From Deltaproteobacteria bacterium (lineage in GTDB: Bacteria > Desulfobacterota > Syntrophia > Syntrophales > UBA6807), in the NCBI GenBank assembly GCA_016935565.1, contig JAFGQS010000110.1, forward strand, positions 27,532 to 91,531: DNA of 64,000 nucleotides, read 5' to 3'. Position 1 is the stretch's first letter, and every line of letters begins with the position of its first letter. Shown one piece after another: positions 1 to 23,715 of this stretch. Under the pieces are notes generated by a model. The model saw nothing but the letters and a program-made list of their open reading frames with translations, did no database searches and was not told the origin of the DNA. Both the position numbers and the translations under genes were made by a program.

Positions 1-48
1 ACCCCTATTATATTTCTGATCATATGCCCTCGTGATACTGTCATTTCC

Positions 49-831
49 TTACCTCTTGAGGTTATTGATCATCTGCAGCATGTTATCTGCCGTTTGAATT
101 GCCTTGGAATTAATTTCATATGCTCTCTGGCCCACAATCATCTTGACCATTTCGTCGACGACTTTCACGTTTGACATCTCGAGGAAATGCTGTGAGATGG
201 TACCCATGCCTTCCTCGCCGGGATTCCCCGTTATGGCTTCACCGGATCCTTCCGTCGCATCAAACATATTTCTCCCGATGCTGCTCAGACCTGCGGGATT
301 AACAAACTTTGCCAGTTCAATCCGACCACTCGACAGGGTAGTACCGGTTCCGTCAGCAGCTGTCCATGTTCCTCCACTGTCGATGGTAAAGTGAACCGTC
401 TCCTGAGGAAGAGTTACTTCGGGCGTTAATTTATATCCTTCGGCAGTGCAGAGGTTGCCATCCTTGTCGATCTTGAAACTGCCAGCTCGAGTAAATACTG
501 TGCGATCATCGTAGGTAATTTGAAAGAAACCATCTCCTTCGATGGCCCAGTCCAGATCATTTTCAGTCTGTTGATAGTCTCCCTGGGAAAACAGTTTTTG
601 AGTGGCCACCGGTTTCACCCCCATACCGATTTCAGTGCCGATGGGCAGTTGATTCCCTTCTGTTGTCTCCGCACCCGCTTTCGTGAACACCTGGTACATG
701 AGATCCTGGAAATCAGCTCGCGATTTTTTGAATCCAACCGTATTTATATTAGCCAGATTATTGGCAATAACATCCTGATTGAGTTGCTGTGCCTCCATTC
801 CGGTAGCCGCTGTCCATAACGCTCTTATCAT
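49..831 (-). CDS. flgG: Flagellar distal rod protein FlgG
   Basis: 260 aa. N-terminus MIRALWTAATGMEAQQLNQDVIANNLANINTVGFKK and C-terminus QRAYEINSKAIQTADNMLQ are the canonical rod/hook family termini. Length is typical of FlgG. Confidence 0.95.
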   Translation of the reverse strand: MIRALWTAATGMEAQQLNQDVIANNLANINTVGFKKSRADFQDLMYQVFTKAGAETTEGNQLPIGTEIGMGVKPVATQKLFSQGDYQQTENDLDWAIEGDGFFQITYDDRTVFTRAGSFKIDKDGNLCTAEGYKLTPEVTLPQETVHFTIDSGGTWTAADGTGTTLSSGRIELAKFVNPAGLSSIGRNMFDATEGSGEAITGNPGEEGMGTISQHFLEMSNVKVVDEMVKMIVGQRAYEINSKAIQTADNMLQMINNLKR

Positions 832-869
832 CGTATTCCTCCCTCGTGACTTTGCTTTTTCTTCGGTAT

Positions 870-1589
870 TTATAACTTGCCGATACGATTCGTTGACAGT
901 TTATCCTGTTCCTGTAGCGTTTGCATCACCTTCTGATACAACTCAAAGGAACGGTTGACGTTAATCATGTCAACCATTTCTTCCACAGCTTTCACATTGG
1001 AAAGTTCGAGATATCCTGATTGAATTTCATAGTCTTTCCCCATTTGCAGTTGAGCTGCATCTTCGGGATTGCGAAAAAGGCCTTTTCCCTGTTTGACAAG
1101 TTCGCTCGGTTTGCCGAAGTCGACGATCTTCAACACGCCTATTTCACTCCCGTCAACTTTGATCGAACCATTCTCGTCGATTTCAATTTCAACATTATCC
1201 CCCGGAATCGTGATCACACCCGATGTGCCGAGAACATAATCTCCTTCCCCGGTCACCAGGTTTTTGTCCGTGTCGAGAGTAAATTTCCCGTCCCGAGTAT
1301 AGGCTTCACCTTCTTTTGTCTGAACGGCAAAAAATCCCTTTCCATCGATAGCCAGATCCAATGTATTGCTTGTTTTTTGAATAACTCCCTGAGAATAATC
1401 TATCGTTCGTATCGCACTCTCCAGAGGTCGTTCAGCATTGTAGAGATCATCGGGATCCTTTTCCAAAAAAAAGGCTCTTTCCGCCTTGAAACCGCTTGTA
1501 TTAACATTTGCGATATTATTGGTTATAGAATCGAGTCTATTGATCTGCCGTATACATTCTCTCGACATCGCGTTCAGTGCCCTAATCAT
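870..1589 (-). CDS. flgF: Flagellar proximal rod protein, FlgF type
   Basis: Rod-family N-terminus (ITNNIANVNTSGFK) and C-terminus (NRSFELYQKVMQT), about 240 aa, directly upstream of flgG. The ORF track starts at 1598. I prefer the ATG at 1589 (MIRALNAM...) because GGTGGA lies 8 nt upstream. Confidence 0.85.
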   Translation of the reverse strand: MIRALNAMSRECIRQINRLDSITNNIANVNTSGFKAERAFFLEKDPDDLYNAERPLESAIRTIDYSQGVIQKTSNTLDLAIDGKGFFAVQTKEGEAYTRDGKFTLDTDKNLVTGEGDYVLGTSGVITIPGDNVEIEIDENGSIKVDGSEIGVLKIVDFGKPSELVKQGKGLFRNPEDAAQLQMGKDYEIQSGYLELSNVKAVEEMVDMINVNRSFELYQKVMQTLQEQDKLSTNRIGKL

Positions 1590-1624
1590 GTGTTCCATCC
1601 ACCACGTTTTTTATCCTAAAGATA

Positions 1625-1640
1625 AGCAAGTTACATGCCA
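1625..1640 (-). promoter_or_regulatory. Sigma54 (-24/-12) promoter candidate for flgF-flgG
   Basis: The reverse complement reads TGGCATGTAACTTGCT. The consensus is TGGCACG-N4-TTGCW. GG and GC are at the exact 10-nt spacing, about 25-35 nt upstream of the flgF start. Confidence 0.6.
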
Positions 1641-1968
1641 GGATTAAAGGTTTAATGATATAGTCTCAAGGCCAAAAACTGAAGCTAGGTTTATAGTTCC
1701 TTAAAAAGTTATAAAACGCTCTCTCAAGCAAGGTACGATGGCAAGGATAATTCTGAATGCTAGGTTATTCTAATTAGTTACGTCCTTTCCTTTTGTTCCT
1801 TCCTGCTGGTGGAGAGAACTCTCAACACTATACGGAACCATCAATTATCTAAATTAGCACTTTACCATTATTGATTGGTGGGGAAATGTGATCCAGGGTT
1901 TTTCTTTTTTCCAAAAGGAGCAGATTTATGGGTAGGCAGTTTTTGTTCACGGGGAAAAATTTTCCCGA

Positions 1969-2268
1969 TCAGCTGACCGATTGTCTTTCCCGGTATCGCT
2001 CATTGAGTGAATAAATAAAGGCAAGGATCTCAGCAACAGCCTTATATAACTCCGGTGGAATCTGTTCATCAATATTAAGCCGGCTTAAAATCTGAACAAG
2101 GGCGGGGTCTTTTTTTACCGGTACACCGTGTTTCGCTGCAAGATCGAGGATTTTTTGGGCAATGATACCTCTCCCCTTAGCAGTAACTCTGGGAGCCGCA
2201 TCCTTTTGACTATTATACTCTATGGCGGCAGCAACGGTAGCCTCTTTTTTTTCTTTGGTTTTGTTCAT
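1969..2268 (-). CDS. Stand-alone FlhB C-terminal domain protein (YlqH-like EscU/YscU/HrcU-family fragment)
   Basis: 99 aa that align colinearly with the post-cleavage C-terminal domain of the resident FlhB. Shared blocks include AKGRG, NVP/GVP and LYKAVAE[VI]LAF[VI]Y. There is no transmembrane region and no NPTH motif. Confidence 0.8.
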   Translation of the reverse strand: MNKTKEKKEATVAAAIEYNSQKDAAPRVTAKGRGIIAQKILDLAAKHGVPVKKDPALVQILSRLNIDEQIPPELYKAVAEILAFIYSLNERYRERQSVS

Positions 2269-2317
2269 ATGAACACCTCACCATCAAAAAGGGGGCATTA
2301 GAAACATGTTGTCAATG

Positions 2318-3460
2318 TTAGACAACAACATCCACTCCCTCCCGATCATACAAGGTATCAACTCTTTCATGCTCAATCTTCTTTATCATGGAAATATCTG
2401 TTTCCGTAACACACGTCAGATGATCAACATCATATCCTAATGCCACCAGTTTCTCCTCAAGTTCCTGAAGAAAGGGAACAACAAACGCGCGAATTTCTTC
2501 CCGACTGCACCTGACAACACATCCCATCTTGTTCATATCAATCGTTGCCTCAACAACGATGTCACCAAGGGCATCCATGTTCAACAGGAACAGGACTCTT
2601 TGTTGTTTTTTCCGTTCTCCCCTGTTCGAATCCGTATTATCAAATTTTACATAAATTTCAGCCAAACCCAACTGTTCCGGAAATAATACGGGAATCTGGA
2701 ACATATACTCATTCTCACTCTCCCGAAGAAGCACGTTGACAACCTGGTGGGCTTCGATGGTTTTGAGCGATGAATTGATAAACTGTGAAAGCCTCTCCGC
2801 TCCGGGATGTCCGGCATTCATCGACAACATCTTTACCTTGTCAGATATTTTGGTGAGAATACCCTTTATGTTGTCGGAAGCACGCGCTACGTTGTTAGCC
2901 CTGCCAAACTTCTTTTCGAGCGCTTCAGCCAATTCCTTTTCCATCAGATATCCAAGGTTATATATATAATTTTTAAAAAATCCGTCGTTTAAACTCCCTT
3001 TGGACATTGTCATCGTTTGGATGAGTTTCTGTAGAGTCTCAATATCTTCTTTTCCCAGAAGTGTCGTAAGTTCTGCGAGATTTTCCGGACTGAATCGTCC
3101 GCGCCCTTCCACAAACATATCCAGGAGTGCCTTTGGATTAGTATTGATATATTTCACAAAATCTTTGAATTTTACACTTTCCGATTTCTCATTCTGTAGA
3201 ACACGAAGAATGACACGGGGAGATAACTGCTCGACACGGAGTGATCTTTTTTCACCGATTCGAAGGGGTATTTCGGAATCCGCCGAGATACTCCTGTTTT
3301 TGAAGGAAATCAAAAAAGTTCTCTCGCCTTGCCTTTCTACAATCTCAGCTTCTACGATTTCTCCGACACTGAGAGGCGGCAACGAGTCTATTTTCTTTTG
3401 AAGATGTAAGAAATGATTTATATTTCGAGACACTGAGGAAGGGGTTATTAACGAAGACAT
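2318..3460 (-). CDS. Hypothetical protein with a FliK-C-terminal-like (hook-length-control-like) region
   Basis: 380 aa. The C-terminal third (LGLAEIYVKFDN...VLFLLNMDALGDIVVEATID...EEIRAFVVPFLQELEEKLVALGY) follows the beta-rich pattern of Flg_hook domains. It overlaps the upstream gene by 1 nt and sits next to the FlhB-C-only gene. The family call is from pattern recognition only. Confidence 0.45.
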   Translation of the reverse strand: MSSLITPSSVSRNINHFLHLQKKIDSLPPLSVGEIVEAEIVERQGERTFLISFKNRSISADSEIPLRIGEKRSLRVEQLSPRVILRVLQNEKSESVKFKDFVKYINTNPKALLDMFVEGRGRFSPENLAELTTLLGKEDIETLQKLIQTMTMSKGSLNDGFFKNYIYNLGYLMEKELAEALEKKFGRANNVARASDNIKGILTKISDKVKMLSMNAGHPGAERLSQFINSSLKTIEAHQVVNVLLRESENEYMFQIPVLFPEQLGLAEIYVKFDNTDSNRGERKKQQRVLFLLNMDALGDIVVEATIDMNKMGCVVRCSREEIRAFVVPFLQELEEKLVALGYDVDHLTCVTETDISMIKKIEHERVDTLYDREGVDVVV

Positions 3461-3936
3461 CAGCTGTTCTCATTCTTCTTGCGATTGAGTCCTATGATAA
3501 GATTAATCTCTCCCTCTGTTATGTTTAACGCGTGCGCAATATCTTTTGTCTCAACGCCCCGCTCGGCCATTGTTATAACCTGTTCATATTCTTTCCAACG
3601 ACCGTCATTATTGTCCGTCATCGACTCATAAGAGCTCATCTTTGGGAAATTGCCGGGTGAATCTTCCGTGACGAGCTTCAGTCTTTTTTCCTTTTCGTCC
3701 AACGCATACGCGACTTCTTTAAGAGATCTCCTACCTTCGTCTAACGTTTGTAACAGATAATCGGCGGAGCGCCTTGATTCCTCAATCAATGATTTAAATT
3801 CGTCCAGTGCTGCTGGATCTACACCACTGTTTCTCTTTTTTATTTCTTTGGTTACTATAACAAGAAGAAATACAATAGCAATGCACAATATTACATCGGC
3901 AACGATTTGAATGCCTAACATCAACTCTAAGTTCAT
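3460..3936 (-). CDS. Membrane-anchored hypothetical protein with a C-terminal HTH-like motif (DUF2802-like)
   Basis: 158 aa. N-terminal transmembrane helix (IVADVILCIAIVFLLVIV), a coiled-coil middle, and a C-terminus MAERGVETKDIAHALNITEGEINLIIGL that resembles the short HTH tail of flagellar-cluster DUF2802 proteins. Confidence 0.35.
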   Translation of the reverse strand: MNLELMLGIQIVADVILCIAIVFLLVIVTKEIKKRNSGVDPAALDEFKSLIEESRRSADYLLQTLDEGRRSLKEVAYALDEKEKRLKLVTEDSPGNFPKMSSYESMTDNNDGRWKEYEQVITMAERGVETKDIAHALNITEGEINLIIGLNRKKNENS

Positions 3937-3937
3937 T

Positions 3938-4258
3938 TTATACCTTTATATCTACCTTTCCACCAAGTTCATCAACTGATCGCTCACTGTCACCATCATC
4001 AGTGCCTTGAACATCACTACCGGTTGTTCGTTTTCCGTGCTTTTCCTCTCTTTTACCGCGCCGTTCCTCCTCTCTAATCAAGACATACTCGAGTTCTTCC
4101 GATTGTTGAACTTTTTCTTTTACTTCCTTTTTTTCCTTACTTAACTGATCTTCAAAATATCGCTGCTGGACATCAGGATGCTGTTGTTGAACCTGTTGAA
4201 CACGTTCAATCGAATTCAGCTGCAGTAAAACCTGTTGTATATCGACCGACCTGACCAT
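3938..4258 (-). CDS. Hypothetical Gln/Glu/Lys-rich protein, first gene of the accessory operon
   Basis: 106-aa ORF. It is tightly packed with the next gene (1-nt gap) and preceded by a sigma28-like promoter. I recognise no family. Confidence 0.4.
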   Translation of the reverse strand: MVRSVDIQQVLLQLNSIERVQQVQQQHPDVQQRYFEDQLSKEKKEVKEKVQQSEELEYVLIREEERRGKREEKHGKRTTGSDVQGTDDGDSERSVDELGGKVDIKV

Positions 4259-4339
4259 AACTTTTGATCCCCTTTACAATAATAAAACAGGGGCAAACGA
4301 ATAGCACTCGTTGCTGTATAACAGCGATCTTTCTCTATG

Positions 4340-4368
4340 TTATCGTCACAACTCCTTATGATCTTTAA
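4340..4368 (-). promoter_or_regulatory. Sigma28 (FliA)-type promoter candidate
   Basis: The reverse complement reads TTAAAGATCATAAGGAGTTGTGACGATAA. This is TAAA-N16-GACGATAA against the consensus TAAA-N15-GCCGATAA. It lies about 70-80 nt upstream of the ATG at 4258. Confidence 0.5.
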
Positions 4369-4420
4369 TATATCAAATCTCCGGTTGAATAGTCGGTCAA
4401 TTTCATTTTCCATTTATCAC

Positions 4421-5239
4421 TCAATAAGGTATCCGCGCTGAAATAACATTAAATCCCGCTCCTTCTTCACACTGAAAGTGAACATTATACTTTTTCAAAA
4501 GAGATACGGCATTGAATAAATCCCTGTCCACGTTTGTTTCATCATATGATTTACCGAAATTATCCCAGTTTTGTATTAATTCTTTCTCGTCATCATTGAG
4601 TGAATGCACACTGGTATTTTCAATTCTGACACATACATGAGTTGCATCTGATGTTGTTGAAACGATTAACACCTTTATCTCGCTATCTCTCATAGAATTC
4701 ATAGCATGCCTGATGAGTGTCGATAATGCGATTGAATAATCTGCAGGCGATCCCGTTACCTCTGGGATTCCATCGTCCAACAAAATATTCTTCTTTACCT
4801 GATGTTTAAAATCCAGATAAAAATCAAAGAACGCTAGTTCAGTCTTAATAAGTTCCGACAGGTTAATTTTTCGTACCGTTGTGTCACTGAGCCGGTAAAA
4901 TTTCCCAGCAACATCATTGAATAAATTAAAAAGTCTATCCGTTTCATTCGCTATCAGAACAACATCATCAATGATTTTCTTACAGTCTCGCAACATTTCT
5001 TCATTTAACTCAACGTATTCGCTTATGTTCTCAAGGTTTTTTGTCGCCCGTCGTTGGAGTAGTCTGGAACGGCCCATAATCCCGTTTAATGGATTGGCGA
5101 AGTTATGGAGAATGCCCGGTATAAGTTCTGTGGCAAAGCTAGCTTCAAATTCCTTCATCATTTCTTTAAAAGTATCTCGTTCTTCCGTGCCCCCCTGTCC
5201 TGACATGACCCAACTCCCCTCTTTTGCTATCCATTGCAA
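4421..5239 (-). CDS. Orphan cytoplasmic histidine-kinase-like protein with a degenerate ATP-binding G1 box
   Basis: 272 aa. H-box-like ILHNFANPLNGIMGRSRLL and N-box-like LIRHAMNSM are present. Where DxGxG is expected the sequence is VRIENTSV. A G2-like EEGAGFNV is present. No transmembrane, PAS or receiver domain is visible. Confidence 0.6.
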   Translation of the reverse strand: MQWIAKEGSWVMSGQGGTEERDTFKEMMKEFEASFATELIPGILHNFANPLNGIMGRSRLLQRRATKNLENISEYVELNEEMLRDCKKIIDDVVLIANETDRLFNLFNDVAGKFYRLSDTTVRKINLSELIKTELAFFDFYLDFKHQVKKNILLDDGIPEVTGSPADYSIALSTLIRHAMNSMRDSEIKVLIVSTTSDATHVCVRIENTSVHSLNDDEKELIQNWDNFGKSYDETNVDRDLFNAVSLLKKYNVHFQCEEGAGFNVISARIPY

Positions 5240-5244
5240 TGCGA

Positions 5245-5550
5245 CTATTGTCTTGTATCAATAATGATATTCTCCAACATCTTCCATGCCCGCTTTACGT
5301 TTTCATCTTCAGTACCATCCGATTTATTATCAAGCGATGAAACGTCTGTTGAATAAATAATATGCTCATTTCCTTCATCATCTTTGATCTTGCGAGGAAA
5401 TTTCTTTTCCTGTTTTAACATAATTTGAATGGTCTCATCACTGACTCCTGCTTTCTTCAGTTGAATAATCTGTTCCGCCGTCAAGGCAAAACTTGAAGAT
5501 ACGAAACAAAACACGAAAGCAACGATATAGATAAAACAGATTTTCTTCAT
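5245..5550 (-). CDS. Small secreted hypothetical protein
   Basis: Start moved to the ATG at 5550 (MKKICFIYIVAFVFCFVSSSFA signal peptide), which is preceded by AAAGGGGGGAAA. The ORF track starts at 5592. Confidence 0.5.
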   Translation of the reverse strand: MKKICFIYIVAFVFCFVSSSFALTAEQIIQLKKAGVSDETIQIMLKQEKKFPRKIKDDEGNEHIIYSTDVSSLDNKSDGTEDENVKRAWKMLENIIIDTRQ

Positions 5551-5652
5551 TTTCCCCCCTTTCAAAACAGAAAATACAGGGCGGTATAACAATATTGATT
5601 CTCTTCTTCCGATACCGATACCATGGCATCCATTACATATCCCGCATCGGTA

Positions 5653-6177
5653 CTATAATAAAATAAATTTTGTAATATACACATCGGTTATGACGTCGTT
5701 TCCCATAAATCTATTCAGTTTCTCTTTAATTTCTTTTTTTAATCGCTCTCTGGCATTAAGTAAAGAGGAGAAATGTATTCTCAGTTCCTTTGATATTCTA
5801 TATATGATTTTTCGTAATTCGAACCTGTCCTGTGTCAACTTCGTCCCTGGCCTCAGCTCCAAGACAACGTTGCAGACAAGAACACCACTGCTCGTATCAT
5901 CTTTGACATAAATAATAAATTCCTTAAAATACTCGAATGAGGCTTGCGGTAACGTCACTTTCTGCACATGAATGTGCTCTTGCCTTGCTTTCCCTGATAT
6001 GAGATCCTCTGTACCCGAACGTACATCCCTATCCTCGCCGATGTCTGCACTACCAACGGTTGTTTTACCGAGACAACCAAAACCCACTAATATCATAATC
6101 ATCAGACACATCGGCATGACTCGTCCTGTGATATGAAAAACTGCTGTCGGTGAAAATCCAAAATGTCTTGACTTCAT
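5653..6177 (-). CDS. FliL-like paralogue, probable lipoprotein or membrane-anchored
   Basis: The C-terminal half (FKEFIIYVKDD...VVLELRPG...RERLKKEIKEKLNRFMGNDVITDVYITKFILL) parallels the bona fide FliL in this window (...LRDEIAMRVNSYLTKGRIKYVYFTEFVIQ). The N-terminus carries a hydrophobic segment ending in GFGC. Confidence 0.55.
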   Translation of the reverse strand: MKSRHFGFSPTAVFHITGRVMPMCLMIMILVGFGCLGKTTVGSADIGEDRDVRSGTEDLISGKARQEHIHVQKVTLPQASFEYFKEFIIYVKDDTSSGVLVCNVVLELRPGTKLTQDRFELRKIIYRISKELRIHFSSLLNARERLKKEIKEKLNRFMGNDVITDVYITKFILL

Positions 6178-6210
6178 GCGCTACCTCTGGATTCGCTAAA
6201 ATCGCTGCTC

Positions 6211-6948
6211 TTATGATAAATCTCCGTTGTGATGTAAGTCTTTTAAAATACCCCTCAGTTTCAGAACTGCCTGAGAATGGATCTGACATATTCTTGACTC
6301 CGTCAATTCCAGGACCATACCGATTTCTCTGAGCGTTAGCTCTTCATAATAGTATAATGACAGGACCATTCTTTCTTTCTCAGGTAAAGCATCGATAGCA
6401 TTCTTGAGTTCCCTTTTTAATTCATTACTGGTTATAAGGGAAAATGGATCATTCTCATCAATCTTTTTCAGTACATCATAGTGGCCATACTTTTCACAAT
6501 AATTTGGTGGAAGATCATCACTGCTGAGAATGGAAATACTCTTTGCATCATCAAGCATTTTATAATAATCATCAAGCGATATACCAAGATAGTCGGAAAT
6601 CTCTTCAACCGTTGGCTGTCGTCCCAATTCTTTCTGTAATGATGTCAACGTATTCACCAGTTTCGCATCCTTGTTCCGAGCAGATCGGGACAGATTATCC
6701 CGCGATCTCAGTTCATCCAGTATAGCTCCACGAATTCTGAACCTGGCATACGTTTCAAATTTAACATTCCTCTCTTTATCGAACCGCTCCAATGCTGAAA
6801 TCAACCCTATGATACCCACATTAATCAGGTCTTCCTTATCAATGTGATCGGGTAATCTCATGGCAAACCTCTCCACAATATTCTTAACGAGAGGTGCATA
6901 CTTCATTATCTGTTGGTCGCGTTTTCGTTTATTTACCATCTCGATCAA
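6211..6948 (-). CDS. fliA: RNA polymerase sigma factor FliA (sigma28)
   Basis: 245 aa. Sigma70-family regions 2, 3 and 4 are recognisable (LINVGIIGLISALERFD, RERMVLSLYYYEELTLREIG). Position immediately after flhF-flhG. Confidence 0.9.
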   Translation of the reverse strand: MIEMVNKRKRDQQIMKYAPLVKNIVERFAMRLPDHIDKEDLINVGIIGLISALERFDKERNVKFETYARFRIRGAILDELRSRDNLSRSARNKDAKLVNTLTSLQKELGRQPTVEEISDYLGISLDDYYKMLDDAKSISILSSDDLPPNYCEKYGHYDVLKKIDENDPFSLITSNELKRELKNAIDALPEKERMVLSLYYYEELTLREIGMVLELTESRICQIHSQAVLKLRGILKDLHHNGDLS

Positions 6949-7828
6949 CGATTGCCTTGCTGAAAAATTTCATCGTTCCGCTTTCGTATGGCCCGGGCCG
7001 TTCCTGACACAGTTTTTTAGCAATTGAAAAGAGGCATCTGGTTGCTTTGGAAGAAGGAAAAATATCGGCCAGCAGGTGTTGCTTTTTCACTGCTTCCGGA
7101 ACGCCATTATCACATGGAACATGTCCTAAATATTCAACGGAAAGATTCAGGAAATGATCTGTCGCATTGCTCAGTTTCCTGAAAACACTTCGCGCCTCAT
7201 TGGAAGTCTTCACCATGTTAACAAGTATCATAAAACGCTTCTCGGAATAGCCTTGATAAAGAATTTTAATCAAGGCATACGCATCTGTCAGGGATGTCGG
7301 CTCAGATGAGACGACAACGATAATTTCTTTCGCAGCCATATTAAAATACATGACATTCCCTGCTATGCCGGCACCGGTGTCAATAAAAACAAAATCCAGG
7401 CGTTCATTCAAATCATTGAGCGCATCCAGCAAGGTAAGCTTTTGTCCCTTTGATAATTCTGCCATTTGCTGAATTCCCGATGCAGACGGCAGAATTTTTA
7501 TACCTCCCGGACCTTGGATAATAACTTCCGACAATGTTTTCTCACCATGGAGAACATGACACAGATTGTACTCAGGTGTGATTCCCAGAAGCACATCTAT
7601 GTTGGCTAAACCGGTGTCTGCGTCAATAAGCAAAATTCTTTTCCCCATCATGGATAAAATATATGAAAAGTTAGCCGCTATGTTTGTTTTACCAACTCCT
7701 CCCTTACCGCTGGTAATAGCAATAACCCGGGTATCCTCATTGCACCCCTTTTGTTCCGGTAAGGGGTTAATCTTAGAAATTTTGTCTTCCATCTTTTTCA
7801 TTTCCCTCAGTACTCCGGCCTGATCCAC
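6929..7828 (-). CDS. flhG: MinD-like ATPase FlhG (FleN/YlxH)
   Basis: Deviant Walker A SGKGGVGKT. N-terminal MDQAGVLR matches the DQAxxLR FlhF-activating motif. Located downstream of flhF. Confidence 0.9.
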   Translation of the reverse strand: MDQAGVLREMKKMEDKISKINPLPEQKGCNEDTRVIAITSGKGGVGKTNIAANFSYILSMMGKRILLIDADTGLANIDVLLGITPEYNLCHVLHGEKTLSEVIIQGPGGIKILPSASGIQQMAELSKGQKLTLLDALNDLNERLDFVFIDTGAGIAGNVMYFNMAAKEIIVVVSSEPTSLTDAYALIKILYQGYSEKRFMILVNMVKTSNEARSVFRKLSNATDHFLNLSVEYLGHVPCDNGVPEAVKKQHLLADIFPSSKATRCLFSIAKKLCQERPGPYESGTMKFFSKAIVDRDGK

Positions 7829-7843
7829 GAAACCACCTCTGCC

Positions 7844-9010
7844 TTAGTTTGATAGAGCGGATAAATTCTTATTTACCCTGTTATTAACGATCAATTGTGC
7901 AAGCTCACCAGGATTAACTCTTTGTATATCTTCGGGGACTCCCTGTCCGTCGGTTATATACCACACAGGTTTCTTCACCCGATCAATGATATTGTACATG
8001 AACCCGAATTTGGTGGAATCATCCAGCTTTGTAAATATAATATTGTCGTAGTCCATAATATTAAATCTCGTCACTGCATCAACCATATTCTCCTTGCTCG
8101 ACGTCATGCTTAAAACAAGATTCGTTTCCACTGGAAGATCCGTTTTCAAATAATTCCTTAATTGAGCCAGATGACCTTCGTCGTTGCGACTCCTCCCGGG
8201 TGTATCAACGAGAATAATGTCTCTGTCGGCAAGTTTGTTTACAATCCTTTTGAACTCTTTGTTGTCGGAAGCAACTTTCATGGGAACATCCATGATACGT
8301 GCATATGTTTTCAGTTGCTCTGCGGCACCGATGCGATAGGTATCCATCGTAATGATACCCACATTCAACTTCTCTTTGAACAAATAATGGGCGGCAAGCT
8401 TTGCCAGCGTTGTCGTTTTCCCTTCACCGGTAGGACCTATAAATGCAGAAATCCTTTTATCATCTGCGGCATGATAAGAAGAAGCAATCGATTTTGATAT
8501 CATACTCTCAAGGATGTTGAGGATGTGATCAAAATCTTTCAGATCTTCAGCCGGATTGCATTTCTTCAATTCTTCAAGGAGCGCACAGGCCTTCCGCTTT
8601 GATATGCCCGTTGAAACCAGATAATAGTAAGCCTGTGAAAGGGGAGAAGAGATTTTTCCGTTTTTACGGATGCCCAAAACATCAAGTAAGCCCCCTACCG
8701 TTTCTTTCAATTCTGTAAGTTCGGTATAAACATCCCTCTCTCTTTTGAAATCTTTGAAGAGAGACCGCAATTCGTTTACATCCGATTTAATAACGGACAA
8801 CATATTGACGGTATCATTCTCCTGCCTCTTATATTCTTGCCCGTCGGGAATTATATAATTATCATCCCTGGCAGCGAGTACCTCAATAAGAGCACTTTTT
8901 TCACCTGTCAATCGCTTTGTAGAAAGTACAATGGCATTTGACCCAAGTTCACTTTTAATTTTAATCATTGCTTCACTAATACTTCTTGCTTCGTATCGTT
9001 TAAGCTGCAT
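7844..9010 (-). CDS. flhF: SRP-type GTPase FlhF
   Basis: 388 aa with GPTGEGKTTT (G1), DTPGR (G3) and TKLD (G4). Located between flhA and flhG. Confidence 0.9.
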   Translation of the reverse strand: MQLKRYEARSISEAMIKIKSELGSNAIVLSTKRLTGEKSALIEVLAARDDNYIIPDGQEYKRQENDTVNMLSVIKSDVNELRSLFKDFKRERDVYTELTELKETVGGLLDVLGIRKNGKISSPLSQAYYYLVSTGISKRKACALLEELKKCNPAEDLKDFDHILNILESMISKSIASSYHAADDKRISAFIGPTGEGKTTTLAKLAAHYLFKEKLNVGIITMDTYRIGAAEQLKTYARIMDVPMKVASDNKEFKRIVNKLADRDIILVDTPGRSRNDEGHLAQLRNYLKTDLPVETNLVLSMTSSKENMVDAVTRFNIMDYDNIIFTKLDDSTKFGFMYNIIDRVKKPVWYITDGQGVPEDIQRVNPGELAQLIVNNRVNKNLSALSN

Positions 9011-11087
9011 TTTTCAACCCCAGTACCCCTAAAGATCTGATGTTAACATCGTGAGTGATCTCGTTATGAGATAACACGGCAATGTGAGGGAAAAACTTCT
9101 CCAGTATCTTCCTTACATGTATTCTCGTATGAGGCGAACACAGAACAATCGGTTGTAATCCCCTTGCAGTAAATGTCTTGATGAAATTCTGAAGGTTGCT
9201 GACAATATTTTGAATCAGATTGGGATCGGCCGCTACGAATGATTCATATTCAGTATGTTGAATAGCCTTATCAATGTTCTCCTCAAAGCCGGGGGAAACC
9301 ATAACAACAGAAATGTTACCATCGCCATCCTGATATTGCCTCGTAATGGTCCTTGCTAATGACTGTCGTACATATCCTGTTAATATATCAGCATTTTTTG
9401 TCATAACAGCATAGTCTGCCAGTGTTTCCAGAATGGTGAGAAGATCACGAATAGAAACTTTCTCACGTAAGAGCCTCTGCAGTACCTTATGGAGTGTACC
9501 AAGAGGTACTATATTCGGAACGAGTTCCGCCACGACCTTGGGATGGGTAACTGATAAAGTATCGAGCAGTGATTGAACATCCTGCCTGCCCAGCAACTCG
9601 TCAGCATGTGTTTTCACAATTTCCGTTATATGGGTCGTGATGACGGTGGCAGGATCGACAACCACAATACCCTGTGCCTGAGCTCCTTCCTTTTCTTTCT
9701 TATCGATCCATTTAGCCGGCAGGCCGAACGCAGGCTCTTCGGTATCGATACCCTTTAATTTCATTTTGCTGTCCTCGGGCATTATGGCGAGATAATGACC
9801 CATCATCAGATCCCCTTTCGCCACATGAGATCCTTTAAGTTTAAGGACATATTCATTGGGTTGTAACTGAAGGTTATCCCTGATGTGAATAGCCGGTATG
9901 ATAAAACCCATTTCAACGGCAAGCTGTTTCCTCAAAGCTCTCACTCTCTGAAGTAATTCTCCTCCCTGACTTGCATCAACGAGGGGAATCAGACTATATC
10001 CTACTTCAAGTTCCAGGATATCAAGAGGCAGGAGGGTTTCCACCGACTCTGTTGGTGTTTCTATTGGTGGTTCTTCTTCCGCCATCTCTTTCTCTTTTTT
10101 TGATGACTGCATCACCACATAGGCAACGACTGACACGGCAAATGCTATGAGCATAAACGATATTTTTGGCATGCCGGGAATCAGACCAAACAGAAACAGC
10201 ATACCAGCGGCGGTTGCAATTGCCTTCGGCTGAGCGAAGAGTTGAATTTTTACTTCATTACTTAAATCAGAAGATGCCGTGGAACGTGTAATAAGCATTC
10301 CGGCAGCGGTCGATACGATCAAGGCCGGAATCTGAGTTACCAGACCATCACCCACGGTGAGAAGAGTATACGTGTGAGCGGCTTCAACAACAGGCATACC
10401 TTGTTGGAGGACACCGATGATTAAACCACCAAGAATATTGATAATGGTAATTATGATTCCTGCGATGGCATCTCCTCTGACAAATTTACTGGCTCCGTCC
10501 ATGGCACCGTAGAAATCAGATTCCCGCGCAACATCTCCCCGTCTTTTTCTCGCTTCGGCATCTGTTATCAGACCCGCATTGAGATCTGCGTCAATGCTCA
10601 TCTGCTTACCTGGCATAGCATCAAGGGTAAACCGTGCAGCTACTTCTGCAATCCTCGTTGCACCTTTCGTTATGACAATAAAATTGATCAGAACAAGCAC
10701 CAGAAATACGATGAGTCCAACCAAGAAATTACCCCCGACGACAAAGGTACCGAAGGCCTTGATAACCTGTCCCGCTGCCGACGTACCCTCGCTACCATGG
10801 AGAAGGATAAGACGGGTAGAAGCTACATTGAGGGACAAACGAAGCAATGTGGCAGTTAAGAGGACAGAAGGGAACACCGAAAAATCGAGCGGTCTCAACA
10901 CATATACAGCAACCAGCAAGATAATCAAAGCAAATGTAATATTAAAAGAAAGGAGGATATCGAGTACAAACGGAGGCAGAGGAATCATCATAACCAGCAG
11001 TATTCCGGTTATCCCGAGAGCCATGACCGTACTGCTGCTTCTTAACCAACCTGTTAAATTTTTTCTTTCAGCGTAAGAACCTGTCAT
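9000..11087 (-). CDS. flhA: Flagellar export gate protein FlhA
   Basis: 695 aa. Conserved FHIPEP region (FPSVLLTATLLRLSLNVASTRLIL, MPGKQMSIDADL) plus the large cytoplasmic domain. Confidence 0.97.
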   Translation of the reverse strand: MTGSYAERKNLTGWLRSSSTVMALGITGILLVMMIPLPPFVLDILLSFNITFALIILLVAVYVLRPLDFSVFPSVLLTATLLRLSLNVASTRLILLHGSEGTSAAGQVIKAFGTFVVGGNFLVGLIVFLVLVLINFIVITKGATRIAEVAARFTLDAMPGKQMSIDADLNAGLITDAEARKRRGDVARESDFYGAMDGASKFVRGDAIAGIIITIINILGGLIIGVLQQGMPVVEAAHTYTLLTVGDGLVTQIPALIVSTAAGMLITRSTASSDLSNEVKIQLFAQPKAIATAAGMLFLFGLIPGMPKISFMLIAFAVSVVAYVVMQSSKKEKEMAEEEPPIETPTESVETLLPLDILELEVGYSLIPLVDASQGGELLQRVRALRKQLAVEMGFIIPAIHIRDNLQLQPNEYVLKLKGSHVAKGDLMMGHYLAIMPEDSKMKLKGIDTEEPAFGLPAKWIDKKEKEGAQAQGIVVVDPATVITTHITEIVKTHADELLGRQDVQSLLDTLSVTHPKVVAELVPNIVPLGTLHKVLQRLLREKVSIRDLLTILETLADYAVMTKNADILTGYVRQSLARTITRQYQDGDGNISVVMVSPGFEENIDKAIQHTEYESFVAADPNLIQNIVSNLQNFIKTFTARGLQPIVLCSPHTRIHVRKILEKFFPHIAVLSHNEITHDVNIRSLGVLGLKNAA

Positions 11088-12175
11088 TGTCGTGAGTATC
11101 CCGATGATCGTTTCATTTTCATACGGTAGACGAATGCGAGCACTTCGGCAACCGCCTTATACAAATTAGTCGGTATCATGTGATCAATGTCCACTATCTT
11201 ATACAATACTTGTGCCAGGGGTTTGTTTTCGACGATGGGAACATTGTTTTTCTCTGCAATCTCTTTAATCTTAGCGGCAATATACCCCCTTCCCTTGGCA
11301 ATAACCTTTGGCGCTGACATATTTGACTGATCATATTCAAGAGCCACCGCAATGTGTGTGGGGTTTGTGATGACAACATCAGCCTTGGGAACCTGGGTCA
11401 TCATTCTTTTTCTTGCCGCTTCTCTCTGGAGATTCCTTATACGTGCCTTTATAAGGGGATCACCTTCTGTTTGCTTATATTCATCCTTCAGTTCCTGCTT
11501 TGACATCTTGAGATTCTTTTCAAAGTCCCACCGCTGAAAGATATAATCGAGTACTGCCAGGACAATGAGCACCCAGCAGGATCTGAACATAACCTTGAAA
11601 GCAGCCTTCCCGATGCAATTCAATACACCCCATATACTCTGATCCCCCAGAGGAATAAGATTTTTAATTTCTCCGACAACGGTTATATAAGCAACAAAAC
11701 CGATAAGCAGAATTTTAAAGATATTTTTTATTAACTCTACAAAGGACCTGGCAGAAAAGAGTCTCTTAAATCCCTTAATCGGATCAATCTTCGACAGTTT
11801 CGGTTGTATCGATTCCGAGGAAAAGATAAAGCCGATCTGGAAAACATTGGCAATAAACGCCACACAAACAACGGTCAGCATCAGAGGGGCAAGGAGGCCA
11901 AACGTCTTATATATCAGGGTGAGTATAAGAAGATGGATTGTATCGCCATTGATTACAAAGTGCCCCGATTCATGAAGTGTCCATCTCATGAGACCCATCA
12001 TCTTTTCGACCATTATGGCTGAACTAAAGTAGAAAAGTGTCAGGCAGGCCATCAGTATTGCCACCGAGGTAATCTCCTGGCTCTTCGCTACCTGTCCCTT
12101 TTCCCGCGCTTGTTCTCTCCGTCGCGAAGTAGGTTGTTCAGTTTTTTCCTGATCCTTATTTTGTTCATCGGACAT
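11084..12175 (-). CDS. flhB: Flagellar export switch protein FlhB
   Basis: 363 aa. N-terminus EKTEQPTSRRREQAREKGQVAKS, four transmembrane segments, and the autocleavage motif NPTH in VVITNPTHIAVAL. Confidence 0.95.
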   Translation of the reverse strand: MSDEQNKDQEKTEQPTSRRREQAREKGQVAKSQEITSVAILMACLTLFYFSSAIMVEKMMGLMRWTLHESGHFVINGDTIHLLILTLIYKTFGLLAPLMLTVVCVAFIANVFQIGFIFSSESIQPKLSKIDPIKGFKRLFSARSFVELIKNIFKILLIGFVAYITVVGEIKNLIPLGDQSIWGVLNCIGKAAFKVMFRSCWVLIVLAVLDYIFQRWDFEKNLKMSKQELKDEYKQTEGDPLIKARIRNLQREAARKRMMTQVPKADVVITNPTHIAVALEYDQSNMSAPKVIAKGRGYIAAKIKEIAEKNNVPIVENKPLAQVLYKIVDIDHMIPTNLYKAVAEVLAFVYRMKMKRSSGYSRQ

Positions 12176-16196: not shown

Positions 16197-16697
16197 TTAT
16201 TGAATGACAAATTCGGTAAAATAGACGTATTTGATTCTCCCTTTTGTCAAATAGCTATTAACACGCATGGCAATTTCATCTCTCAGCTGCTGTTTTCCGC
16301 CGTATCCTACGATTTCCTTGTATTTCTTCGATGAAAGGAGGTCCAAGACATTGTCCACTATCTTTGGTTTCAACACGTCTAATTCCGTTATACAATCCTG
16401 GCTCGATAATTCCACCTGAACAACCGCTTTCAGGTATCGTTCGCCATTGCCATCCATCAGGTTTACAATCATAGTACCCATAGGCCAGACGGCACCTATT
16501 AAAGGCTTTTGTTCTTCGACCTTCTTTTGCGAATTTGCCATGTGGGATTGATAATATTTCCACCCTCCAAAACCGGTGGCTGTCAAGATCAAAAGCACAA
16601 AAACAATGACAATCCATTTAATAATTGAGCCTTTACCTTTCTTCTTTTTTGAATCTTCATTTTCTTCAAGATTCTCATTTTTTTCTTCGTCAGCCAT
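16197..16697 (-). CDS. fliL: Flagellar basal-body-associated protein FliL
   Basis: 166 aa, one transmembrane helix, and the typical C-terminus ...YVYFTEFVIQ. Confidence 0.85.
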   Translation of the reverse strand: MADEEKNENLEENEDSKKKKGKGSIIKWIVIVFVLLILTATGFGGWKYYQSHMANSQKKVEEQKPLIGAVWPMGTMIVNLMDGNGERYLKAVVQVELSSQDCITELDVLKPKIVDNVLDLLSSKKYKEIVGYGGKQQLRDEIAMRVNSYLTKGRIKYVYFTEFVIQ

Positions 16698-16706
16698 CTC
16701 TCCTCC

Positions 16707-17390
16707 TTACTCTTTCAATGTTAAAATAATCTCCACTCTCCTGTTGAAAGCCCTGTTTGAGTCGCTTATATTCGCGAAACGGGGCCGCGCATCAGCATAA
16801 CCTGCCGCAGAAAGTCTTTCCGGAGAAATACCGCCGTCATGAATGAAATATTTAATAAGAGCGACAGCCCGTGCCGTCGAAAGCTCCCAGTTTGATGCAA
16901 AGTATTCATTACTGATGGGAACATTGTCCGTATGTCCTTCCACTCGTATTTGACAATCAGCATTTTTGAGAATAGGACTAAGCTTCTCAAGAACTGTCTG
17001 GTCCTTCTTTCCAAAGTCGGCTTTCGCTGTTTCAAATAACACCTTTTCTCCCATAATAATGGACACGCCATTCTCTGTCACTGTCGCATCAATTCCCGTT
17101 ATCTCGTTTAAATGATCGGCCAACGCTTCCTTCTTTTTTTCATATGTGAGTATTTGATTACCCCTGGGGGAAATGAAAGGGGTAAAAGCCCTTACACCGC
17201 TTAACTCTCCCCACTGCAACATCCCGAAGGCATCCTGGACGGAGCGACACATTTCCTTAACCTTGCCTGAATCCGTATCTGCCATGGAAAGAACCAAAAC
17301 AAAGAATGTAAGGAGCAGGGTAACCATATCGTTGAAGGTTGTAAGCCATTTTCCGCCCCCTTCTTCCTTATTTTTTGCTTTTTTCTTCAC
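16707..17390 (-). CDS. motB: Stator protein MotB (canonical, Asp-containing)
   Basis: 227 aa. The transmembrane segment KWLTTFNDMVTLLLTFFVLVL contains the conserved proton-channel Asp. OmpA-like C-terminus (SNWELSTARAVALIKYF, NRRVEI). Confidence 0.85.
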   Translation of the reverse strand: MKKKAKNKEEGGGKWLTTFNDMVTLLLTFFVLVLSMADTDSGKVKEMCRSVQDAFGMLQWGELSGVRAFTPFISPRGNQILTYEKKKEALADHLNEITGIDATVTENGVSIIMGEKVLFETAKADFGKKDQTVLEKLSPILKNADCQIRVEGHTDNVPISNEYFASNWELSTARAVALIKYFIHDGGISPERLSAAGYADARPRFANISDSNRAFNRRVEIILTLKE

Positions 17391-17412: not shown

Positions 17413-18183
17413 TTATTCTTCCCCTCGATATATCTCGAAATAAAATTCAACCCTCCGGTTTGTTTGTCTCTCTTTCGTTGTATCGTTCGATGCTATGGGA
17501 TGATACTCGCTAAATCCAACAGCGGCCAATCTCATCGGAGGGATTTTCCCCTTATCGAGAAAATACCGGAGGACGTTGACCGCTCGTGCCGTCGACAATT
17601 CCCAATTTGACGGAAATTGTTCAGTTTGTATGGGAACGTTATCCGTATGTCCCTCAATCCGTACGGAAAATTTGTTTTTTTTCATTACGGCAATCATTTT
17701 ATCGAGGTATGGAATCGCATTTTTGTTAATGGTTGCGACACCCGACGGAAACATAACACTGCTTCCGAATGTCGCCTTAAACCCCGTGTCCGTCCGTTCC
17801 ACATGAGCAACATTACCTATTCCCGCATTTTCGATAAATTCTGTCAGTGACGACATCCCCATGACAACCGATTTTTTATCACTTCCGATCATATCAGGTG
17901 TATTGCGTAAGATGGTACCGCCACCACCGGTCTTGCGTCCCGCCGTATAGGCCATGAATTTTCTCAAAGCGGATGATGATGACAGTCCGTCCATCATTGT
18001 CTTTTCCGAAGAAACCGAAAAACCCCGAATGAAGTTTGTCATCTTATTCTCTTCAACGGTTGAATAGGATACGAGCATGGCAAAAAAAGCGACTAGAATA
18101 AGAGCAAGAGAGCAATAGATCACCTCCCAACTGGCTACCGGTGCCCCACCTCCACCTTTATCCTTTTTATATTCCTCATTCAT
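17413..18183 (-). CDS. MotB-like OmpA-domain protein lacking the conserved channel Asp
   Basis: 256 aa. The transmembrane segment SWEVIYCSLALILVAFFAML aligns residue-for-residue with W-x3-Y-x-D-x8-FF of MotB, but has Ser at the Asp position. The OmpA-like C-terminus is intact (SNWELSTARAVNVLRYF, NRRVEF). Confidence 0.7.
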   Translation of the reverse strand: MNEEYKKDKGGGGAPVASWEVIYCSLALILVAFFAMLVSYSTVEENKMTNFIRGFSVSSEKTMMDGLSSSSALRKFMAYTAGRKTGGGGTILRNTPDMIGSDKKSVVMGMSSLTEFIENAGIGNVAHVERTDTGFKATFGSSVMFPSGVATINKNAIPYLDKMIAVMKKNKFSVRIEGHTDNVPIQTEQFPSNWELSTARAVNVLRYFLDKGKIPPMRLAAVGFSEYHPIASNDTTKERQTNRRVEFYFEIYRGEE

Positions 18184-23393: not shown

Positions 23394-23491
23394 TGAAACA
23401 TCAACTTTCTGGATTAGCGGATGCACCAAATCCGTTTCCTCGGCAAGAAGAGAGGAAACATAGTATCGAAAATGTCTTTGTTGGGAAGGGG

Positions 23492-23507
23492 AGCAAGAGA
23501 TGTGCCA
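23492..23507 (-). promoter_or_regulatory. Sigma54 promoter candidate for fliK-flgD-flgE
   Basis: The reverse complement reads TGGCACATCTCTTGCT, the best match to TGGCAC-N5-TTGCW in the window. Confidence 0.65.
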
Positions 23508-23715
23508 CACAAGCGCAGCATAATATTATGTATTATATCAATTGGTTACAAAAATTAATCGCCCAGAATATTTGAAAAGGGGCAAATATTGCCTACAGGT
23601 TTCAGGGGACATGAAAAAAAATTCCGATCTCAAGGAGCTGTTGCAAAAGTGCCGATATGAGGTTAAAAAACGGGAAATGGAAATTTGAAAATCGGGAACG
23701 GGAAAACGTATATTA

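Follow-up and report, generated by a model that had tools for sequence, protein, structure and literature searches.

The window analysed here, a 64-kb stretch of contig JAFGQS010000110.1 from a Deltaproteobacteria bacterium, carries a large flagellar gene cluster on its minus strand. Within this cluster lie four tightly packed genes, whose products comprise 106, 158, 380 and 99 amino acids (aa) (Table 1). We consider it very probable that these genes constitute a late-class operon under the control of sigma-28 (FliA) and encode a conserved accessory module for the flagellar export gate that consists of four proteins. By analogy, the operon is the counterpart, in a metagenome-assembled genome (MAG) of the Thermodesulfobacteriota, of fipA/flrD plus the FliA-dependent fliK2-flhX pair of Pseudomonas and Vibrio. 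For identity and mechanism taken together, we put the probability of this explanation at roughly 0.55. Its specific mechanistic part, in which FliK2 and FlhX would stabilise or modulate the late state of the gate and a FipA-like protein would provide a link to the cell pole, is tentative and rather doubtful in its details.

The promoter is situated in a gap of 162 nucleotides (nt) between the end of an upstream HisKA gene (4421) and the 106-aa gene. The full motif reads TAAAGATCATAAGGAGTTGTGACGATAA, i.e. TAAAG-N15-GACGATAA, and its -10 element ends 81 nt upstream of the start codon. The preliminary description of this DNA had proposed a sigma-28 promoter with seven of eight -10 positions in agreement with the consensus. 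Both motif and match (GACGATAA versus GCCGATAA) are borne out, and only the span (4340-4368) has to be shortened by one base. In the window taken alone, the two matches found for a relaxed sigma-28 pattern, against an expected 0.52 per 64 kb, are not significant, and the case for the promoter rests on conservation. For this comparison, 27 related loci from Syntrophales and Desulfobacterales were collected, 25 of which include the upstream sequence. The motif TAAAGATT-N12-GACGATAA precedes the 106-aa gene in 21 of these 25. In an anchored alignment, conservation is restricted to the two elements and a GATTGT stretch before the -10, while the flanks are unconserved, and this holds across loci whose proteins share just 40-55% identity. 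In the related loci, a textbook TAAAGTTT-N12-GCCGATAT is found approximately 7 kb downstream, directly before a FlgM-like gene that is followed by a FlgN-like gene (Pfam FlgM and FlgN). Since the spacing of this flgM promoter is identical, the candidate has the lineage's own sigma-28 spacing. Two distant loci (L032 and L033) also have GACGAT as a -10, correctly spaced from a -35 that reads TCAAG or TAAG. FliA dependence was shown for the analogous P. putida promoter (bioRxiv 10.1101/2021.08.29.457346) and is probable for the four-gene operon, and the sigma-28-type promoter suggested before is supported by its conservation in relatives and by the architecture shared with flgM.

It may be objected that the motif is no working FliA promoter and that the genes are read through from the flhA-flhF-flhG-fliA-fliL2-HK transcript. 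The missing significance in the window and the four related loci without the motif fit this view, as do two loci (L003 and L015) where the cassette directly follows the upstream gene, and no terminator-like site was found on the coding strand between the HisKA gene and the cassette. Against it stand the strong conservation of both hexamer regions without that of their flanks in such divergent loci, the spacing shared with the flgM promoter and the GACGAT -10 of the distant loci. We therefore regard read-through as a highly improbable explanation for the expression of the cassette; some read-through from the fliA transcript may still occur, because the upstream gap lacks a terminator-like site.

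Two details of the promoter region are worth recording. The spacer of the window promoter reads GAGTTGT (4340-4353, minus strand), where the related loci keep GATTGT before the -10. The flgM promoter of the same genomes shows neither the non-consensus A in the -10 element nor the GATTGT spacer. A 65-aa open reading frame (ORF; 4216-4413, minus strand) over the promoter region is most likely no gene and was rejected, because the surrounding DNA is unconserved in the relatives save for the promoter elements. Single-sequence folds gave no consistent hairpin in the 5' untranslated region and no structure sequestering the Shine-Dalgarno sequence across the loci, and Rfam yielded no family match in positions 1-12000 of the window.

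The four genes are separated by a 1-nt gap, a 1-nt overlap and a 49-nt gap, and the ORF coordinates agree with the gene sizes and distances given earlier. The downstream limit of the operon is set by a second promoter. In each of the 17 related loci inspected, flgF is preceded at a distance of 37-54 nt by a sigma-54 motif, TGGCAT-N5-TTGC. Because this promoter is conserved, the flgF operon is under separate control and the four-gene operon ends there; the same observation marks the rod and ring genes as RpoN-dependent in this lineage. A perfect palindrome, GGGAAAATTTTTCCCC, lies between flhX and this promoter, and many related loci have similar sequences, GGAAAA(A)TTTTCC, in the equivalent position. 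The palindrome may form the stem of a terminator or serve the sigma-54 promoter of flgF as a binding site for an activator (enhancer-binding protein).

The cassette behaves as a unit beyond the window. The gene order flhF-flhG-fliA-fliL2-(115 aa)-(HisKA)-106-158-380-99-flgF-flgG is kept in the 27 loci as far as the contigs reach, save that the two bracketed genes are absent from some of them. In more distant FliK2 relatives (approximately 20-32% identity), the neighbouring genes once more encode a small ORF, a DUF2802 protein and a Bac_export_2 protein of approximately 100 aa, and the cassette still holds together at about 22% identity. Where the DNA was at hand (L031-L033), the small ORFs proved to be homologues of the 106-aa protein. 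Two of the distant cassettes have a different setting, in one case behind cheA-cheB-motA-motB and in the other ahead of fliM. The 380-aa protein itself is 100% identical to JXC33_08240, a hypothetical protein of a 'Deltaproteobacteria bacterium' MAG, and its relatives stem from Thermodesulfobacteriota, Syntrophales and Desulfobacterales MAGs. One of the distant loci (L033, 5001-6800) encodes a 599-aa FliK2 relative with three tandem N-terminal beta-barrels before the helical and T3S4 domains.

The C-terminal third of the 380-aa protein had been described as FliK-like, and several lines of evidence converge on this assignment. The AlphaFold2 model (predicted local distance difference test, pLDDT, of 80) comprises a beta-barrel at residues ~35-88, a helical domain at 92-249 and an alpha/beta domain at ~251-372, followed by a disordered last heptad. 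Confidence is highest at residues 290-360 (pLDDT 86-93), and residues 15-250 are predicted to be folded as well (about 58-93). In Foldseek comparisons, the C-terminal domain matches the SS domain of PscP (5cuk; probability 1.0, root-mean-square deviation, rmsd, 2.4 A, 70 columns) and FliK-C (2rrl; probability 0.98, rmsd 2.5 A, 67 columns). At the level of the family, the Pfam model Flg_hook is matched in 47 of 48 diverse members at E <= 0.01, with a best E of 4e-12, and an hhalign comparison of the family profile with the Flg_hook region of the window FliK gave a probability of 90% (E 1.6e-6). On the basis of fold prediction and profile comparison, the protein thus holds a genuine T3S4 (FliK-C) domain. 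It also carries the strand motif L298-G299-x-I301-x-V303. In Salmonella FliK, V302 and I304 contact, i.e. crosslink to, FlhB-C (PMC6972891), and judged by the motif, I301 and V303 probably correspond to these two residues.

This domain architecture is that of a T3S4 protein and not of a ruler, because its first 250 residues are predicted to be folded and take the place of the disordered export signal and ruler of FliK. A role as the FliK ruler was considered and rejected in view of the predicted fold of residues 15-250 and of the separate 611-aa FliK encoded before flgD-flgE. FliK2 has the T3S4 core fold in common with the rulers of the FliK/SctP type (YscP, PscP), as well as the strand motif LG-phi-x-phi and the tail motif at the C-terminus; unlike these secreted proteins, it has no disordered export signal, ruler or linker, but a folded beta-barrel and a helical domain instead. 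Functionally, the best analogy is the Xanthomonas protein HpaC, which has been described as a T3S4 protein of the cytoplasm that binds the C-domain of the FlhB/YscU family and thereby governs the choice of substrates (PMC3040844). HpaC differs from FliK2 in its N-terminal part, in belonging to a system of the injectisome type and in the absence of a paired stand-alone FlhB-CC protein. The FliK2 family is large: a profile search detected 4144 cluster representatives at E <= 1e-3, of which 1106 also reach E <= 1e-10, and many have the full length of approximately 380 aa. When homologues were sought again with a diverse profile, largely the same 59 proteins came back, and none was a named relative from gammaproteobacteria or Bacillus.

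The fourth protein was proposed to be a stand-alone FlhB C-domain, and this identification holds. Pfam Bac_export_2 matches the 99-aa protein with 72 bits (cut-off 24.4), and its residues 12-88 align with residues 275-352 of the window FlhB at 49% identity, a stretch that begins just past the NPTH motif. It also matches the post-cleavage chain B of 3b1s (Aquifex FlhB-C) from residue 4. The NPTH motif was not found in the protein or in its 16 orthologues. Judged by these comparisons, the 99-aa protein is a FlhX/YlqH-type paralogue consisting of the FlhB-CC subdomain alone, without the transmembrane region and without the CN part. Since the CN strand is missing, FlhX would need a partner to complete its fold. 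A further difference concerns the LARxLY site, which reads LAQVLY in the window FlhB and L[AV]Q[IV]LS in FlhX, i.e. the tyrosine is replaced by serine in the window. Among 19 pattern-matched orthologues, window included, this position is occupied by serine in 17, by alanine in one and by tyrosine in one; distant cassettes exhibit serine or alanine, and Bacillus YlqH has arginine. In FlhB, YscU and HrcU, exchange of this tyrosine for aspartate makes the T3S4 protein dispensable (PMC3040844). A tblastn search of FlhX against a plasmid collection returned mostly genuine FlhB proteins, among them a Ralstonia match with NPTH and LARALY, and the only useful record was a Bacillus ylqG-ylqH pair.

FlhX might simply be a spare part that replaces FlhB-CC once this has dissociated or been degraded after autocleavage, with FliK2 and the small protein acting in chaperoning or delivery and having no role in switching. 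It begins exactly at the start of the cleaved FlhB-CC and lacks the CN strand, and the T3S4-like gene and flhX are joined by translational coupling or overlap in some loci and in Bacillus. In H. pylori, FlhX (HP1575) was reported to partially replace FlhB function (cited in bioRxiv 10.1101/2021.08.29.457346). A mere replacement would, however, hardly differ from FlhB-CC so systematically at the LARxLY tyrosine, which argues for a distinct state, and the sigma-28 timing is late for a structural spare. We consider this explanation unlikely.

As the preliminary description had stated, the pair represents second copies of both switch partners, and the genuine FliK and FlhB are indeed encoded in the same window (Table 1). 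From this it had suggested a decoy or a second-stage switch acting on the export gate. In a decoy or titration, soluble FlhX would bind up FliK-C or late substrates and FliK2 would occupy FlhB-C, so that export is damped or delayed and not locked in the late mode. Both proteins are soluble extra copies, which suits such a titration, and HrcU-C of Xanthomonas has a single site for which an early substrate competes with the T3S4 protein (PMC3040844). A pure decoy would need neither a FipA-like membrane partner nor a conserved small protein in the cassette, and we judge it to be quite unlikely.

The second gene product was characterised earlier as a transmembrane protein with a tail resembling a helix-turn-helix (HTH), and its identity as a FipA/FlrD-like protein had been missed. 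The layout itself can be read from the sequence: an N-terminal hydrophobic, putatively transmembrane segment at residues ~5-29 is followed by a charged helical stretch and a C-terminal HTH-like domain, on which DUF6115 scores 32.1 bits (cut-off 27) along with faint HTH models. Among the homologues, 17 of 22 carry a precomputed PF10975 match, and most have both PF10975 and PF19610. FipA binds FlhF and is needed for polar flagellation and for the polar localisation of FlhF; the names FipA, V. cholerae FlrD (VC2058), P. putida PP_4331 and V. parahaemolyticus VP2224 refer to the same protein (PMC11620751). Residues G127, E143 and L146 of the 158-aa protein are invariant in 25 sequences. The distance of 19 from glycine to leucine equals that of VpFipA (G110/L129) and PpFipA (G104/L123), and the distance of 16 from glycine to glutamate equals that of VpFipA (G110/E126). 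The glycine and the leucine are those required for FlhF binding (PMC11620751). The window protein resembles FipA/FlrD in its size of approximately 160 aa, the putative N-terminal transmembrane segment, the helical region, the DUF2802-like C-terminal domain and the spacing of the three residues. Unlike FipA, which was defined in gammaproteobacteria, it occurs outside this class and has DUF6115 above and DUF2802 under the cut-off. Like fipA/flrD, the gene is located downstream of flhF-flhG-fliA and co-occurs with FlhF and FlhG in the window as well as in related and distant loci. Based on these features, we take the 158-aa protein to be FipA/FlrD-like and a putative partner of FlhF.

This raises the question of whether the whole operon serves the positioning and number of the next flagellum via FlhF/FlhG, with FliK2 and FlhX recruiting or priming a new gate. 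The FipA-like gene is always present in the cassette, and flhF and flhG are part of the cluster. The requirement of FipA for polar flagellation and its binding to FlhF suit this idea, as does the stimulation of early flagellar genes by V. cholerae FlrD (cited in PMC11620751). There is, however, no link between a T3S4 domain or FlhB-CC and FlhF, and P. putida transcribes flrD/fipA with the class II operon and fliK2-flhX apart from it (bioRxiv 10.1101/2021.08.29.457346). A module dedicated to polar placement is therefore very improbable in our view.

The 106-aa protein has no Pfam or NCBIfam match. Its composition (13% Q, 14% E and 9% K) confirms the earlier characterisation as Q/E/K-rich. Orthologues were found in 25 loci, and the N-terminal 55 residues are strongly conserved (MVRSxDxQQ..Q....ERVQQxQQ..QQR[YH]F). 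The motif [VI][DN][VI]x[VI] terminates all 25 sequences including that of the window, whose tail reads GKVDIKV. The same tail motif is found on FliK2 (GVDVVV in the window), where 34 of the 36 close members and 34 of the 48 diverse ones have it, and further on E. coli FliK (GVDIFA) and Bacillus YlqG (KVDVKI), while the window FliK has a looser form, GRISLFA. The motif occurs in 72 of the 1677 ORFs of 80 aa or more that the window and the loci contain, and FliK2 and 106-aa ORFs are estimated to account for most of the 72. Salmonella FliK without its last five residues no longer switches. The C-terminal tail of FliK was reported to control switching activity (PMC6972891). Judged by its sequence, the 106-aa protein is a conserved member of the cassette that ends in the FliK C-terminal tail motif, a feature the earlier description had missed.

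The [VI]-D-[VI]-x-[VA] tail is similar to that of FliK and also to ADVVIT, the strand located before NPTH in FlhB-CN. This allows the speculation that the four proteins form one machine, in which the tail of FliK2 or of the 106-aa protein would complete the FlhX fold with its missing first beta-strand. At gates that FipA and FlhF mark, the two tailed proteins would then be rivals for FlhX or pass it on to FlhB-CN. We consider this idea decidedly unlikely. A single-chain model of the FliK2 C-domain fused to FlhX, predicted without an alignment to look for such strand complementation, was uninformative (mean pLDDT 44).

The individual components have counterparts in known systems. In P. putida, PP_4328 (fliK2) and PP_4329 (flhX) form a FliA-dependent class IV operon whose function was called uncharacterised (bioRxiv 10.1101/2021.08.29.457346). 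Because fliK2-flhX under FliA was thus already published, the central idea of the preliminary description is a rediscovery in another phylum. Both arrangements have a FliK-C-like gene directly upstream of a FlhB-C-only gene, a FliA promoter, which in the window is predicted, and a position near the flhA-flhF-fleN-fliA cluster and a DUF2802 gene. In the window, the pair shares one predicted sigma-28 operon with the DUF2802 gene and a small protein gene, whereas P. putida has flrD/fipA as the last gene of the class II operon and a separate fliK2-flhX operon, which in some strains is even unlinked (bioRxiv 10.1101/2021.08.29.457346). H. pylori FlhX and Bacillus YlqH are similar to the 99-aa protein in that they comprise ~90-100 aa, equal FlhB-CC and lack the membrane part and NPTH. 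Furthermore, a 'flhX-fliK' pair of Nitratiruptor is listed in a comparative study. In Bacillus velezensis (NZ_CP083716.1), the end of ylqG (L029, 2265-4246) runs into the start of the FlhB-like ylqH, and the YlqG C-domain aligns weakly with the FliK2 profile (42% probability, E 2.6e-4); the Bacillus pair lies among housekeeping genes, unlike the window pair in its flagellar cluster. As to this record, the ylqG homologue has a weak sub-threshold Tex55 hit as its only Pfam match, and its annotation as 'glycosyl transferase' is probably wrong; the sequence is labelled a plasmid, yet has rplS, sucCD and topA. In the literature searched, we found neither the four-gene cassette as a unit nor the small tail-bearing protein, the loss of the FlhX tyrosine or a fipA-like gene co-transcribed with fliK2-flhX from a sigma-28 promoter.

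From these elements, the following course of events may be proposed. Upon completion of the hook-basal body, FlgM would leave the cell and FliA would turn the operon on. FlhX, a ready-cleaved CC without NPTH and without the LARxLY tyrosine, would then dock on FlhB-CN at the gate, in analogy to H. pylori. FliK2 would stay in the cytoplasm like HpaC, having a folded N-terminus in place of the secretion signal and ruler, and its T3S4 core and FliK-type tail would engage FlhB-C or FlhX. Once the secreted FliK is gone, FliK2 and FlhX would stabilise or modulate the post-switch, late-substrate state. The FipA-like protein would finally link the module to the pole marked by FlhF. Whereas the comparisons above show the conservation of promoter and cassette and the domain identities, we infer FliA dependence, the cytoplasmic location of FliK2, the docking of FlhX, the T3S4 contact, the effect on the late export state and the FipA-FlhF localisation.

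Several observations weigh against this explanation. Among the family models that the preliminary description had named as checks, Bac_export_2 is above its cut-off, but the other two stay below for the window proteins, with Flg_hook at 19.9 bits (E 6.5e-4, cut-off 29.8) on the 380-aa and DUF2802 at 25.9 bits (cut-off 33.5) on the 158-aa protein. TIGR00789 (flhB_rel), a model of the FlhX/YlqH type, is the top NCBIfam model for the 99-aa protein, yet its 101.2 bits remain under the cut-off of 117.35. One FlhX orthologue (L014) retains the tyrosine. Four of the 25 related loci lack the promoter motif, and the -10 element deviates from the consensus (GACGATAA, not GCCGATAA). This deviation is conserved, and together with the GATTGT stretch it suggests promoter-specific tuning or an additional regulator. 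Binding of HpaC needs the NPTH motif of HrcU-C (PMC3040844), and since FlhX has no NPTH, a contact between T3S4 domain and FlhX is not a given. Finally, the likeness to PP_4328/PP_4329 is judged from their published description.

With respect to the genomic context, the ORF list together with Pfam and NCBIfam searches gives the minus-strand order fliE, fliF, fliG, fliH, fliI, fliJ, fliK, flgD, flgE, motA and two motB paralogues, continued by fliL, fliM, fliN, fliO, fliP, fliR, flhB, flhA, flhF, flhG and fliA. Then follow a second FliL-like gene, the 115-aa gene, the gene for a 272-aa HisKA protein, the four-gene operon, flgF and flgG. The two FliL paralogues are encoded at 5653-6177 and 16197-16697 (both minus strand); the extra copy directly after fliA is kept in the related loci. 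Two adjoining MotB paralogues (MotB_plug plus OmpA domains) at 16707-17390 and 17413-18183 (minus strand) follow the single MotA. The 115-aa protein (5245-5592, minus strand) has a hydrophobic N-terminus and no family match, and occurs in some relatives only (L003, L009, L015 and L022); in L003 and L015, its gene is located immediately before the cassette. The 272-aa protein (4421-5239, minus strand) is soluble and matches HisKA with 31.5 bits, and no sensor, transmembrane or HATPase_c domain was detected in it. Its gene is kept between fliL2 and the cassette in most related loci, a situation reminiscent of the reported tie of FlrD to the FlrBC two-component system of V. cholerae. For the 611-aa fliK ORF (GTG start at 23510), a TGGCAC-N5-TTGCT match at 23492-23507 (minus strand) falls within the first codons; the real fliK start may sit farther downstream and have a sigma-54 promoter of its own.

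Table 1. Positions of the four-gene operon, its regulatory elements and the flagellar genes referred to in the text
Feature	Position	Strand	Evidence and remarks
Gene 1, 106 aa	3938-4258	-	ORF; ATG at 4258
Gene 2, 158 aa, FipA/FlrD-like	3460-3936	-	ORF
Gene 3, 380 aa, FliK2-type	2318-3460	-	ORF
Gene 4, 99 aa, FlhX/YlqH-type	1969-2268	-	ORF
Predicted sigma-28 (FliA)-type promoter, TAAAGATC-N12-GACGATAA	4340-4367	-	Exact match; conservation in related loci
Sigma-54 promoter of flgF-flgG operon, TGGCAT-N5-TTGCT (TGGCATGTAACTTGCT)	1625-1640	-	42 nt upstream of flgF
Perfect palindrome, GGGAAAATTTTTCCCC	1951-1966	-	Immediately after flhX stop codon
fliA, cognate sigma-28 factor	6211-6948	-	TIGR02479 FliA_WhiG, 264 bits; 1.9 kb upstream of operon, same cluster
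flhG	6929-7828	-	ORF
flhF, expected partner of FipA-like protein	7844-9010	-	ORF; synteny; Pfam SRP54 on L028 orthologue
Genuine full-length FlhB, 363 aa, NPTH at 271-274, LAQVLY motif	11084-12175	-	Bac_export_2, 454 bits
Genuine FliK, <=611 aa, upstream of flgD-flgE, C-terminal end GRISLFA	21675-23510	-	Flg_hook, 67 bits

From a biological point of view, FlhX-type and second FliK-like proteins are widespread, and the data on them are fragmentary and stem from H. pylori and P. putida. The locus described here adds that the pair belongs to a deeply conserved four-gene cassette, together with a FipA-like protein and a small FliK-tailed protein. It further points to a conserved sigma-28 timing outside the gammaproteobacteria, and it exhibits an FlhX that almost always lacks the tyrosine whose mutation bypasses FliK. 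If the four proteins did act as one machine, the state of export specificity would be coupled to polar placement once sigma-28 is active.

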